Below are positions 25,590-60,848 of a DNA stretch of 64,000 bases, piece after piece (the stretch's first letter is position 1; each line of letters begins with the position of its first letter). The notes under the pieces are model-generated. The model did not search any database and was not told where the DNA came from. It worked only from the letters and a program-made list of their open reading frames with translations. This stretch comes from an uncultured Nitrososphaerota archaeon (GTDB lineage: Archaea > Thermoproteota > Nitrososphaeria > Nitrososphaerales > Gagatemarchaeaceae), in NCBI GenBank assembly GCA_963838925.1, contig CAWISW010000003.1, forward strand, positions 672,001 through 736,000, written 5' to 3'. The position numbers were made by a program, and so were the translations under genes.

Positions 25590-26150
25590 CTACTTGCGGA
25601 ATGTCGCCTTGGTCACCCTGTAGTAGATGACCTCTCCCCTGCGCTCGATGACCGCGACTATCGCCTCCTTCCCCATCCTCACTATCTGCTTGACCGAGTC
25701 CCTGAGGTCCCCCAGGCTCTTCTCGGTCCCCTCGTCGAGCGCGAATATCACGAACTTCGCCGCCTTGGCCGGGAAGTCACCCCTCTCGTAGACCCTGAGG
25801 TCGGTCCCGAAGCCGAACCCGTCCTTGACCACGTACCCCCTGCTCCTGAGGTCCCTATAGATGATGAACTTGGTCCAAGAGTCCTTGACCCTCGCCTGGT
25901 TCGCCTTTGCCAGCTCCTCGAAGGAGACGCCCTTCCCCTTGGCGTCCTTGAGGGCCATCTTCCCAGAGTACAACAGGTAGAGCGCCTCGAAGTCCTTGAG
26001 CCTGATCCCCTTTCCCTGCCGCTCGCCGTACCCGCCCTCCTCCAGCTCGCCGAACCTGTCGCTCTGGTCCACGACGACTGACCCGCTCTTGTCGATGGTG
26101 CCCGCTAAGGGGTTGTTCGGCTGCTGTGAAGGCTGCTCCTGGACCTCCAT
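25590..26150 (-). CDS. endA: tRNA splicing endonuclease subunit (probably the structural subunit of an alpha2beta2 enzyme)
   Basis: FEALYL and YRDLRSRGYVVKDGFGFGTDLRVYERG motifs; catalytic His not evident. Confidence 0.88.
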   Translation of the reverse strand: MEVQEQPSQQPNNPLAGTIDKSGSVVVDQSDRFGELEEGGYGERQGKGIRLKDFEALYLLYSGKMALKDAKGKGVSFEELAKANQARVKDSWTKFIIYRDLRSRGYVVKDGFGFGTDLRVYERGDFPAKAAKFVIFALDEGTEKSLGDLRDSVKQIVRMGKEAIVAVIERRGEVIYYRVTKATFRK

Positions 26151-26194
26151 CTGTGGCCCGCGAACCCGCCGAGTCATAATAAGGGTTTCAAGAG

Positions 26195-56502: not shown

Positions 56503-59500
56503 TCAGCTCAGCGCCTTGAGGGGCGACTTTACGCAGAGCAGGACCGCCCTTCCCTCCTCCACCGTCGTGAGGAACGGCACCTGGAGCTCCACCGCCTTGC
56601 GCCTGACCTTGTAGAGGTCCTTCCTCATCTTGTTGAGGTTGGTGTTGAGCGAGAGTATCAAGGCGACCTTGCCCTTGCCGATCATGTCGAGCATCGAGTC
56701 GAGCGACTCCACCTTCGTCCCTTCCCCGAGGAACGGGGCGAGCGAGTCGATGGTCACGAAGGCAATCCCCGCCTTCTTGAACCCCTCGACGAGGGCTTTC
56801 GCCTCGCCTAGCTCCGAGTTCTCGTCCGCGAGGATTATCCCCGTATCCCCCTTCGAGGGGATCTTGAGGCCAGACGCGATGAGGGCCCTGCTCATGGCCT
56901 CCGCTAGGGTGTCGCCGAAGCACGCCACCTCTCCGGTGGAGCGCATCTCCACCCCGACCGTCGGCTCCGCCCCCTCCATCTGCATGAACGAGAACTGGGG
57001 CGCCTTCACAGCGAACTGCTTGGGCTCAGGGACGTCCCCCATCCCCTCGAGCGTCCCGCCAAGGATGACTGAGGCGGCGAGCTTGACGAGGTTCGTCCCC
57101 GTCGACTTGGACACGAAGGGCAGGGACCTCGAGGCCCTGAGGTTGCACTCGATCACCTCCACGTCGTCCTTCACGCACAGGTACTGGATGTTGAAAGGGC
57201 CCTTGACGCCCAGCTCCTTGGCGATGGCCCGGGTGTAGTCGCGTATCTTCGCCTTCGCGGCCTTGCTGACCGAGACGGTTGGTATCGTCATTATCGCGTC
57301 CCCCGAGTGGACCCCCGCCTTCTGCACGTGCTCCATTATCGCGCCGATGACCGTCGTCTCTCCGTCCGAGACCCCGTCCACCTCGACCTCCTTCGCGTCC
57401 TCCATGAACTTGCTTATGGTGACGGGGTAGTTCGGGTTGACCTCGGCGGCCCTCACCAGGAAGCTCTCCAGCTCCCTGCTCCCCCAGATCACCCTCATCG
57501 CCGACCCGCTGAGCACGTGCGACGGCCTCACTATCACCGGGTAGCCCACCCTGTCGCAGAACTCCCGCGCCTGCTTCATCGACCTGAAGCTCCCCCACGC
57601 GGGCTGTGGGATCCCTATCTTGTCGAGCAGGAACGCGAACCTCTCCCTGTCCTCAGCCCTCTCTATCGAGTCGGCGGTCGTGCCCATCACGTTCACGCCC
57701 TCCTTGTCGAGCTCTAGCGCGAGGTCGTTCGGGGTCTGCCCCCCGACGCAGAGGACCGCGCCCATGGGCTTCTCCCTCTCGTAGATGGAGAGCACCCGCT
57801 CCGCGGTCAGCTCCTCGAAGTAGAGCCTGTCGCTCATGTCGAAGTCCGTGGAGACCGTCTCCGGGTTGCAGTTGACGACTATGACCTCGTCGACCTTCCC
57901 GCTCTCCTTGAGCGCCCACGCCATGTTCATGGTCCCCCAGTCGAACTCGACGGAGCTCCCTATCCTGTAGGGCCCCGCCCCGAGCACCATCACCTTCCTC
58001 TTGTCGCTCGGCTTGGCGTCGTCTGTGGAGCCGTTGTAGGTCACGTAGAGGTAGTTCGTCCGGGCGGGCCACTCGGCCGCAAGCGTGTCTATTGCCTTCA
58101 CCTTGGGGGTTATCCCCATCCTCTCCCTCATCGCGCGGACGTCGTCCTCGTCGATCTCTACAGCGTTGGCGACCTGCTTGTCTGAGAAGCCGAGCCGCTT
58201 GGCCTCCCGGAGGACCTCCGGGTCGCGGTCCACGCCCTCCCTCCCGCTGAGCTCTACCCTGCGGTAGGCGTCCACGATGTTCTTGAGCTTGCTGACGAAC
58301 CAGGGGTCGATGACGCTGAGCCTCGCGACCTCCTCCTCGGGGATCCCGACCATCAGGGCCTCGACCACGTCGAAGATTATCTGGTCGGTGGGGTTCCTCA
58401 GCCTGGACTTTAGCACCTCCAGGTCGTCCTCCTCGAGGAGGCGCCGTATCACCCCGTCGTACCTTATGTTGAGCATCCTCGCCGCCTTCTGGATGGTCTC
58501 TTCGAAGCCGCGGCCGATCGCCATGACCTCGCCTATCGACTTCATCGCCGTCCCTATCCCCCTCGACGCCCCCTCGAACTTCTTCGTGTCCCACCTCGGC
58601 ATCTTCAGGACGACGTAGTCGAGCGATGGCTCGAACATGGCGGTCGTCACGCCCGTGACCTTGTTCTTCAACTCCGTGAGGGAGTACCCGAGGCATATCT
58701 TGGCCGCGATGTACGCGATCGGGTAACCCGTCGCCTTCGACGCGAGGGCAGACGACCTCGAGAGCCTCGCGTTGATCTCGATCGCGCGGTACGTCTCCGA
58801 CTTGGGGTCGAGGGCGAACTGCATGTTGCACTCCCCTACTATCTCGCACCTCCTTGCGGCCTTGAGCGAGAGCGACCTGAGCATGTGGTACTCCCGGTTT
58901 GTTATCGTCTGCGAGGGCGCGACGACGATGTTGTCCCCAGTGTGGACCCTCATGCCGAGGACGTTCTCCATGTTGCAGACTATCTGCCCGTTGTCGTCCG
59001 CATCGCGCATCACCTCGTACTCTATCTGCTTCCAGTGGCCGATGTACTCCTCGATGAGGACCTGGTGAGCCATGCTGAGGTTGAGCCCCCTCTGGACGAT
59101 GTCGTCGAGCTCCCTCTCGTTCCGCGCGACCCCCCCTCCCCTTCCGCCGAGGGTGTACGCGACCCTCATTATCACGGGGAACCCTATCTCCTTCACCACG
59201 GCGCGCGCCTCCTCCACCGAGTAGGCCGGCTTGCTCTTCGGGCAGGCGATCCCTATCCCGAGCATGGCCTCCTTGAAGAGTTCGCGGTCCTCCGTCACCT
59301 CTATGCCCTTGATCTGGGTGCCGAGCACCCTCACCCCGTACTTCGAGAGGGCGCCGAGCCGAGAGAGCCCCACCCCGCAGTTGAGGGCGGTCTGCCCACC
59401 GAACCCGAGCATGATCGCGTCGGGCCTCTCCTTCTCGATCACGTCGGTGACGAACTCGGGGTTGACCGGCAGGAAGTGGATCTTGTCCGCCATCTTGTCG

Positions 59501-59676
59501 TCCGTCTGGATTGTGGCGATGTTCGGGTTGACAAGGATGGAGCGTATCCCCTCCTCCCTGAGGGCCTTGAGGCATTGGCTACCGGAGTAGTCGAAATGGC
59601 GGCCGTCTATTCAACGGCTTTCGCCTGCTTCTCCGATCTTTATTGCCCCGCTGCCCAGGACTAGCGCGCTCTTCAC
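56503..59676 (-). CDS. carB: Carbamoyl-phosphate synthase large subunit; exon 1 = 59620-59676, exon 2 = 56503-59595 (1049 aa if spliced)
   Basis: Spliced N-terminus MKSALVLGSGAIKIGEAGE|FDYSGSQCLKAL...NPNIATIQTD, two ATP-grasp domains; GTG start overlaps the carA TGA. Confidence 0.95.
59596..59619 (-). other. Predicted 24-nt BHB-type (tRNA-like) intron in carB pre-mRNA
   Basis: GGCG-AA^A-GCCGU-UGAAUAG-ACGGC-CGCC-AU^U: 4-bp central helix, two 3-nt bulges, 5-bp intron stem, in-frame UGA. Confidence 0.88.
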
Positions 59677-60848
59677 GCTTTCATGCTTCGAACTCTCTCA
59701 CCTACCGTGCTCTTCCTCTGGGACAGGATCATCTCTGCGAACCTGTCGAAGACGAACTCAGTGTCATAAGGCCCCGGCGCGGCCTCCGGGTGGAACTGGA
59801 CCGCGATCGCGGGCCTGCTCCCGTGGACGAGCCCCTCGACGCTCTTGTCGTCCGCGTTGACGAACCAGGGCTTGAGGTCGGTCTTTGAGAGGCTCTTGGG
59901 GTCCACCGCGTAGCCGTGGTTCTGGCTGGTGACGTACCCCCTCCCCGAGACGAGGTCCACCACGGGCTTGTTCTGCCCCCTGTGACCGTACTTCAGCTTG
60001 TACGTCTCCCCTCCCTGCGACATCCCGAGGACCTGCTCGCCCAAGCATATCCCGAGCACCGGCACCTCCGAGTCGACGAGCCTCGCGGTCGTCTTGACCG
60101 TGTCGGCGCACAGGCGCGGGTCGCCCGGGCCGTTGCTGACTATGACCCCCACCGGGTCGTGCTTCATGACGTCGGCGTACGAGGCGTCGAACGGCATCCT
60201 CACCACAGCGTAGCCCCTCCCGAGCATGTTCCGGATGATGCTCTCCTTGACCCCGCAGTCTATCACGACTATCTTGCTCTCGGCCTCGCCGTAGGTCTCG
60301 GCCTTGCGCACCGAGACGCGCTTCACGTAGTCGACCGAGTCGTACTTCGCGGCCTTTTCGAGGAGCCTCCTCAGCTCCCTCCTGTTCGCCACGTCAGGGC
60401 CGGTGGCCAGGACGCACATCATCACTCCCCTCTCCCTGATCGTCGTGACCAGGGCGCGCGTGTCGACGCCCTCGATCCCCGGGACCCCCTGCCCCTCCAT
60501 CCACTGAGAAAGCGTCTGCACCGACGCCCAGTGGCTGGGCCTCTGGCAATACTCCTGGACAACTATCCCGGTCACCTTGATCCCTCCCGACTCGAAGTAT
60601 CTGGGGAGGTCGAAGACGTCCTTGTCCTGCGGGCTGGGGACTCCGTAGTTGCCGATGAGCGGGTAGGTGAACGTGAGCACCTGCCCCGAGTACGATGGGT
60701 CTGTCATCGACTCGGGATAGCCGACCATCCCCGTGTTGAAGACCAGCTCGCCGACCACGGTCGCCTCGGCTCCGAAACCCTTCCCGGGGAAGAGTGTCCC
60801 GTCCTCTAGAAGCAGAACCGCGGGCCTGCTCCCCTCAGGTTTTTCCAT
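59673..60848 (-). CDS. carA: Carbamoyl-phosphate synthase small subunit
   Basis: LEDGT, FNTGMVGY, TDPSY, SNGPGDP, GICLG and QFHPEA motifs. Confidence 0.96.
   Translation of the reverse strand: MEKPEGSRPAVLLLEDGTLFPGKGFGAEATVVGELVFNTGMVGYPESMTDPSYSGQVLTFTYPLIGNYGVPSPQDKDVFDLPRYFESGGIKVTGIVVQEYCQRPSHWASVQTLSQWMEGQGVPGIEGVDTRALVTTIRERGVMMCVLATGPDVANRRELRRLLEKAAKYDSVDYVKRVSVRKAETYGEAESKIVVIDCGVKESIIRNMLGRGYAVVRMPFDASYADVMKHDPVGVIVSNGPGDPRLCADTVKTTARLVDSEVPVLGICLGEQVLGMSQGGETYKLKYGHRGQNKPVVDLVSGRGYVTSQNHGYAVDPKSLSKTDLKPWFVNADDKSVEGLVHGSRPAIAVQFHPEAAPGPYDTEFVFDRFAEMILSQRKSTVGERVRSMKA

Follow-up and report, generated by a model that had tools for sequence, protein, structure and literature searches.

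In the genome of an uncultured soil-type archaeon of the class Nitrososphaeria, the gene encoding the large chain of carbamoyl-phosphate synthase (carB) is interrupted, shortly after its start, by 24 nucleotides containing an in-frame stop codon, which raises the question of how a complete CarB protein may be produced from this locus. The DNA analyzed in this work, hereafter called the window, is a 64,000-nt stretch of that genome. As argued below, we are highly confident that these 24 nt (positions 59596-59619, minus strand) represent an archaeal intron in the carB pre-mRNA, of the bulge-helix-bulge (BHB) kind and the relaxed HBh' type.

Organization of the carB Locus

The carB gene lies on the minus strand. 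Its exon 1 (59620..59676) consists of the GTG start codon (59676-59674) and 18 further codons, the last of which encode GEAGE and end with GGC GAA at position 59620. Exon 2 (56503..59595), opened from 59595 by TTC GAC TAC TCC GGT (FDYSG), comprises 1030 codons and a stop codon. The insert is placed between the GEAGE and FDYSG codons, i.e., after codon 19, and carries an in-frame TGA at 59613-59611. The minus-strand translation reads VKSALVLGSGAIKIGEAGE-SR*IDGRH-FDYSGSQCLK and continues into an open frame of 1030 residues. This is the reading that the original prediction, made from the letters alone, had given for positions 59570-59676 (with the insert at 59596-59619 and the TGA within it), and it proved exact as transcribed.

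In Pfam searches, the downstream frame matched the large chain of carbamoyl-phosphate synthase, and the gene upstream of it matched the small chain. The latter, carA (59673..60848, minus strand), directly precedes carB, and its stop codon overlaps the carB start as GTGA (59673-59676), which suggests translational coupling of both genes. Ribosomes terminating on carA in an unspliced RNA would produce nothing more than a 21-residue peptide. The remaining genes flanking carB encode HisRS, an RFC small subunit, an ACT-domain protein, and one ORF without a Pfam match; no homing-endonuclease gene was found among the carB flanking genes in the window.

Within the source genome (1.84 Mb in three contigs, 87% complete) carB is a single-copy gene, and the sole other match to it is the internal duplication within carB itself. 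The paralogous motif in the second half of CarB, SSVEFDWG, reads uninterrupted and has no insert, as had been noticed at the outset. Exon 2 contains no stop codons and shows 80-92% identity to homologues of the same genus, while the closest named record is that of a 'Thaumarchaeota archaeon' MAG (83% identity).

It was also foreseen that gene callers would annotate this gene as an N-truncated CarB, and this is indeed what is found in public collections. The callers begin exon 2 at the ATG at 59493, the first one after the intron, which gives a protein of 996 aa; exactly this ORF is deposited and belongs to a cluster of 31 members, in which cluster-mates are named Nitrososphaerales. Among the 15 cluster members listed, nine further proteins also have 996 aa and bear the name carbamoyl-phosphate synthase large subunit. 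Anyone using such truncated records for metabolic reconstruction, structure prediction, or proteomic searches would be misled.

Structure of the Insert

The minimum free energy (MFE) fold of the region (-23.5 kcal/mol, z = -3.27; one of 200 shuffled sequences folded equally well) contains the elements of a BHB motif, the individual positions of which are supported by the fold and by the covariation described below. Its central helix is formed by GGCG of exon 1 (59622..59625) and CGCC of the intron (59598..59601). It is flanked by the 5' bulge AAA (59621-59619), with the predicted cut between 59620 and 59619, and by the 3' bulge AUU (59597-59595), with the predicted cut between 59596 and 59595. 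On the intron side there is a 6-bp stem (59618-59613 with 59607-59602) closed by a 5-nt loop (59612-59608), and farther out AUCGGAG (59631..59637) and CUCCGGU (59581..59587) form a distal exon-exon helix. All these elements are located on the minus strand.

The archaeal splicing endonuclease EndA has a recognizable signature: two 3-nt bulges lie 4 bp apart, and in each of them the cut follows the second nucleotide. Applied to the carB transcript, this rule takes out exactly 24 nt and rejoins GAA-TTC (GEAGE-FDYSG). The motif had been described as a canonical BHB, a label that claims too much. The core (two 3-nt bulges on opposite strands with a 4-bp helix between them) and the intron-side helix are present, but the contiguous exon-side helix of the strict hBHBh' form is absent from the MFE fold, in which 5 nt next to the 3' bulge are unpaired, followed by weak pairs and only then by the 7-bp helix. 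Since no exon-side helix directly adjoins the central one, the carB motif is classified as a relaxed HBh' BHB, with a 3-4-3 core, an intron-side helix, and a remote exon-exon helix.

It should be stressed that a loose definition of the BHB matches 54,498 places in the source genome; the shape alone does not exceed chance expectation and is weak evidence. The significance of the carB insert comes from the exact restoration of the frame taken together with comparative and RNA data. Rfam searches of the region 59300-59900 gave no matches at E-values up to 1.

Homologous Inserts, Covariation, and Codon Constraint

The original prediction had pointed to relatives as the place to look for inserts at the same site with covarying helices. 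The regions surrounding the CarB N-terminus were parsed at 110 loci, 30 of them from relatives and 80 from named genome records; in five cases the contig ended before one of the flanks, which left 105 usable loci. An insert at exactly the same codon boundary was present in 59 of them, and the remaining 46 had an uninterrupted junction. Once a duplicate and a further locus, whose flank was short, had been set aside, 57 distinct inserts of 17-52 nt were available for comparison.

All 57 can be parsed in the same way, with a helix of 4 bp, a pair of 3-nt bulges, and a stem of 3-9 bp. The bulges are A[A/G]A (once AAU) on one side and A[A/G/U]U on the other. Moreover, every insert breaks the reading frame: 26 have lengths that are not a multiple of three, and each of the 31 in-frame ones contains a stop codon. 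An intein was therefore rejected, as none of the 57 inserts is both in-frame and stop-free.

For the covariation analysis, the 57 insert sequences were aligned with MAFFT and evaluated against the structure named above. Paired bases were found in 94.1% of the cells, compared with 23.5-50.8% when the partners were slid along the alignment and 87.3% in shuffled alignments, none of 500 of which reached the observed value. The covariation score was 0.281 versus 0.153 in shuffles (again 0 of 500 reached it), and double changes occurred in 78 cells versus 23.3. Changes on both sides were seen in four of the five intron-stem pairs. The central helix was paired in 95.2% of cells, including G-U variants, and its single double change is GGUG/CACC of locus L031; in 11 of the 57 sequences only three of its four pairs are formed. 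It is the structure rather than the sequence that is conserved, and this applies to the helix and the bulges, not to the loop. The expected same-site inserts with covarying BHB helices were thus present in relatives.

The helix strands contributed by the exons are also codons, and their synonymous sites are nearly fixed in the intron-bearing alleles only. The glycine codon GGC was used in 55 of the 57 intron-bearing alleles and in 4 of 15 intron-less alleles of Nitrososphaeria, the tyrosine codon TAC in 57 of 57 and 6 of 15, and the first glycine codon GGA in 54 of 57 and 2 of 15, respectively. Similarly, 6.5 of the seven pairs of the distal helix can form in intron-bearing alleles, compared with 5.1 in intron-less ones. 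The intron-less alleles join the exons precisely at the same codon boundary.

RNA Evidence from a Cultured Relative

Since the lineage represented in the window is uncultured, RNA data were sought for the homologous locus (L121) of a relative belonging to another family of the same order, for which a complete genome (a contig of 2,527,938 bp) is available. The intron predicted in this locus comprises 33 nt (1248-1280). At least 96% of the sampled words of the locus were contained in 20 RNA-seq runs from five studies. Altogether, 24 runs, including three with raw reads, were listed for the locus, and four of them were examined.

In three of these four runs, each from a different study, contigs were found that pass from 1247 directly to 1281, skipping 33 nt. 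The joint has the ends AG..AA and no positional ambiguity, and it falls on exactly the predicted bases, i.e., after the second bulge nucleotide on both sides. Its depths were 1869, 1331, and 274.8, and in one run it is embedded in a contig of 3222 nt. The unspliced contigs were shallower (155.2 and 252.5). If word depth is used as a yardstick, and it is a poor one, the spliced form makes up a majority of about 83-92% and the unspliced form about 8-17%. The contigs bearing the joint originate from RNA libraries and are by themselves no proof that DNA lacks the joined form; a search of the L121 genome with the uninterrupted-junction pattern found no intron-less junction. The fourth run (X22, raw reads) had no reads at all over L121:1094-1453 (360 nt) and normal depth on both sides of this gap, which is probably an effect of filtering out reads resembling human or conserved genes rather than of biology.

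An RNA junction check had been suggested for carB, and its outcome at the locus of the relative, the 1247-1281 joint in contigs of three studies, agrees with the postulated cleavage. The central claim of the original prediction, namely a BHB intron cut by the second-bulge-nucleotide rule so that GAA-TTC is restored, is upheld by these joints, by the covariation, by the broken frame in all 57 inserts, and by the precise intron-less alleles. The feature at 59596..59619 (24 nt, minus strand) is accordingly annotated here as a BHB-type intron on the basis of its sequence, fold, and covariation, and of the splicing of its homologue in RNA; the window's own 24-nt copy would be spliced in the same manner, as its positional and structural homology with a locus from another family indicates.

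Distribution and History in Nitrososphaeria

To survey the class, two DNA patterns, describing either the interrupted or the precise uninterrupted junction, were searched for in an even sample of 401 genomes. The interrupted pattern was found in 231 of the 401 genomes (220 of 350 high-quality ones) and the uninterrupted junction in 107, and the reversed-pattern control gave no matches in any of the 401 genomes. Five unpublished genomes (G267, G169, G361, G319, and G399) are among those matched, and the conclusions do not depend on them. Four genomes (G035, G410, G260, and G275) matched both patterns at different loci, as may happen if the genome has another carB-like gene or the bin holds two strains.

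The insert was present in 150 of 223 genomes of one large family and in 70 of 78 genomes of the other; at a completeness of at least 95%, it was found in 68 of 74 genomes of one family. Both states occur within a single genus, in which 22 of 83 genomes have the interrupted and 61 the uninterrupted junction. This genus may be considered a natural experiment, where intron loss and the constraint that an RNA structure places on synonymous codons can be followed. A same-site insert was also observed in a genome of another order (G090; one of nine genomes in its family), and the intron would be either older than the order Nitrososphaerales or transferred. In the locus sample, the intron-less representatives included Bathyarchaeia, Thermoplasmata, Nitrosocaldus, and DPANN archaea (Woesearchaeota and Nanoarchaeia among them).

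The intron state was then mapped on a quick maximum-likelihood tree of CarB with 100 rows, from which identical proteins and rows with fewer than 400 open residues had been dropped. It requires eight changes, compared with 32.8 for shuffled labels (none of 500 shuffles was as low), a count that cannot formally separate gain from loss and comes from a tree with flagged long branches. Intron-less clades are placed inside intron-bearing ones. This pattern fits an old intron of Nitrososphaeria that would have been inherited vertically and precisely lost several times.

Splicing Machinery and the Proposed Mechanism

Two EndA paralogues are encoded in the source genome. The first one, a beta-like protein of 195 aa (25590..26177, minus strand), shows weak matches to 'subunit beta' models, while the second, of 190 aa, is alpha-like and encoded on another contig. 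They are 29% identical, and both have the N- and the C-terminal EndA domain. The alpha-like protein has a histidine at a position where the beta-like one lacks it, and this is a position that we take to be catalytic. These features suggest that the pair is probably of the (alpha-beta)2 type, i.e., an alpha-beta heterotetramer. According to the passage of PMC5829648 that concerns this subject, no types of EndA other than (alpha-beta)2 and epsilon2 cut non-canonical introns. The gene for the beta-like protein is located about 33 kb from the carB intron, within the same window. The genome also encodes RtcB.

With regard to tRNA genes, ARAGORN in its intron mode flagged 20 of 39 as interrupted. 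Ten of these have short introns of 10-71 nt, which are plausible; in the other ten the indicated introns exceed 200 nt and are likely to be artefacts caused by the permissive mode. With standard settings, a single, uninterrupted tRNA-Arg gene was found in the window.

On this basis, the following pathway may be proposed. The carA-carB transcript would fold so that GGCG of exon 1 pairs with CGCC of the intron, leaving the AAA and AUU bulges at the sides, and the fold would be stabilized by the intron hairpin and the distal exon-exon helix. In each bulge, EndA, probably as an alpha-beta heterotetramer, would cut behind the second nucleotide, and RtcB would then join the carB exons, so that GAA-TTC is restored and CarB can be made at its full length of about 1049 residues. 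From RNA left unspliced, only the 21-residue peptide could be translated. Judging from the gene content, EndA and RtcB would be the enzymes responsible. Full-length CarB depends on the removal of the intron.

Other Explanations of the Interrupted Frame

Of the explanations competing with EndA-dependent splicing, removal of the insert from RNA by a different route, i.e., by self-splicing or by another nuclease-ligase pair, survives best, and even this we regard as very unlikely. The relaxed, not canonical, form of the motif leaves some room for it. However, inserts of 17-52 nt without any Rfam match fall far short of the size of a ribozyme core (a group I or group II self-splicing intron was rejected, as the carB insert has 24 nt and such a core hundreds), the cuts after the second nucleotide of 3-nt bulges 4 bp apart bear the signature of EndA, conservation is concentrated in the helix and bulges and not in the loop sequence, and both the EndA paralogues and RtcB are encoded in the genome.

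It is harder still to maintain that carB is a pseudogene created by a stop-bearing insertion, or that its sole product is an N-truncated protein translated from the ATG at 59493. The in-frame TGA would be expected of such a gene, and gene callers do report the 996-aa ORF, but that ORF is devoid of the conserved glycine-rich N-terminus encoded by exon 1. Degeneration is likewise at odds with the facts that this is the only copy of carB in the genome, that its frame of 1030 codons is undamaged and shows 80-92% identity within the genus, that the insert is retained at the same site, with compensatory changes, in 231 of 401 genomes, and that its homologue is removed from RNA in the relative.

Equally little credence can be given to translation of the unspliced message, either by ribosomal read-through of the stop codon or by bypassing. 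The gap of T4 gene 60 is short, holds a stop codon, and forms a hairpin, and the carB insert resembles it in all three respects. Read-through, however, is impossible in the 26 of 57 homologues whose inserts are not a multiple of three in length, and, unlike in T4 gene 60, the carB insert does not end in a landing codon that matches the take-off codon GAA, while in the relative the insert is physically missing from the RNA contigs that account for most of the depth. An assembly or sequencing artefact has a negligible probability, given that same-site inserts recur in independent assemblies numbering in the hundreds, some of which are complete genomes in a single contig.

Possible Role of the carB Intron

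If the insert is taken to be an EndA-type intron, one may ask what maintains it. It is most likely a tolerated, vertically inherited passenger, in which selection acting on the exon and intron helices preserves splicing competence; as the cell cannot do without the host gene, the signals needed for splicing are kept. Losses of the intron have occurred several times, and in one genus 61 of 83 genomes no longer have it, which makes an indispensable or essential regulatory role unlikely.

The unspliced RNA observed in the relative is compatible with a regulatory checkpoint. It is conceivable, though improbable, that carB splicing is incomplete and tunable, and that the capacity of EndA and RtcB, shared with the many tRNA introns, gates the supply of carbamoyl phosphate for arginine and pyrimidines. 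Such tuning, if it took place, would be a prokaryotic counterpart of IRE1-XBP1 switching, and this in the archaea that are the most abundant on Earth. Irrespective of regulation, the intron-bearing lineage includes ammonia oxidizers, and most ammonia-oxidizing archaea have the intron; in these organisms the synthesis of arginine and pyrimidines would depend on the tRNA-splicing machinery; ammonia-oxidizing archaea dominate nitrification in soils and oceans.

Relation to Known Protein-Spliced Introns

A BHB intron in the pre-mRNA of crenarchaeal cbf5 was reportedly described by Watanabe in 2002 and Yoshinari in 2006. The relevant passage of Yokobori 2009 (PMC2738675) states that archaeal pre-mRNA splicing had been confirmed for no gene besides cbf5, and the table in the same source gives no cbf5 introns in Cenarchaeum and Nitrosopumilus. 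The archaeal protein-spliced mRNA introns have hitherto been limited to this one published gene (PMC2738675, 2009), and no later one was found. The original prediction had been cautious about the novelty of an intron in carB and had called for a literature check; none was found in our full-text searches, and a mention in the Cenarchaeum genome paper (PMC1643844) or in supplements is possible. The carB gene would be the second gene of this kind, with comparative proof in hundreds of genomes and RNA evidence in a cultured relative.

The crenarchaeal cbf5 intron (PMC2738675) has much in common with that of carB: it is a short, protein-spliced mRNA intron with a relaxed BHB, it occurs in hosts with hetero-oligomeric EndA, it shows a patchy distribution of gain and loss, and it misleads gene callers. 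In contrast, cbf5 encodes an RNA-modification enzyme (pseudouridine synthase), whereas CarB is an enzyme of central metabolism; furthermore, the cbf5 intron is crenarchaeal, and the one in carB is found in Nitrososphaeria after codon 19, close to the start. In the source genome itself cbf5 is uninterrupted, and an intron in the RNase HII gene is absent.

The relaxed-BHB tRNA introns of Thaumarchaeota and Thermoproteales are similar in their predicted machinery and 3-4-3 core, and short tRNA introns are present in the source genome as well. The carB substrate differs from them in being an mRNA, where the exon strands of the helices also serve as codons and their synonymous sites have become fixed.

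A more distant parallel is provided by eukaryotic HAC1/XBP1 mRNA, which is cleaved in the cytoplasm by IRE1 and rejoined by an RNA ligase, of the RtcB type in animals. In both cases a protein endonuclease excises a small, frame-changing mRNA intron at structured sites (cf. PMC13149111). HAC1/XBP1 nevertheless relies on another endonuclease and another recognition motif and acts as a regulated stress switch, and the carB intron is not a member of that class.

Other Candidate mRNA Introns in the Source Genome

A genome-wide BHB screen was performed, in which the 54,498 structural places were reduced to 216 compact candidates by open-frame and codon-usage filters. The carB intron was placed at rank 9. 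Chance matches dominate in this GC-rich genome, and the eS30 insert described below was missed. One carB-like candidate (contig C2, 382805-382823) was rejected, the actual gene being located on the opposite strand.

Finally, outside the window, the gene encoding ribosomal protein eS30 (L124:1471-1501, contig C2 of the source genome) was found to contain a frame-breaking insert of 31 nt after its sixth codon. In its fold, GGAG pairs with CUCC, the bulges are UCA and AAU, and a hairpin is enclosed; its removal according to the BHB rule rebuilds a split leucine codon and joins MPTHGS to TKAGKVRSQTPK. It looks like a second mRNA intron of the source genome and may be regarded as a candidate of this type.
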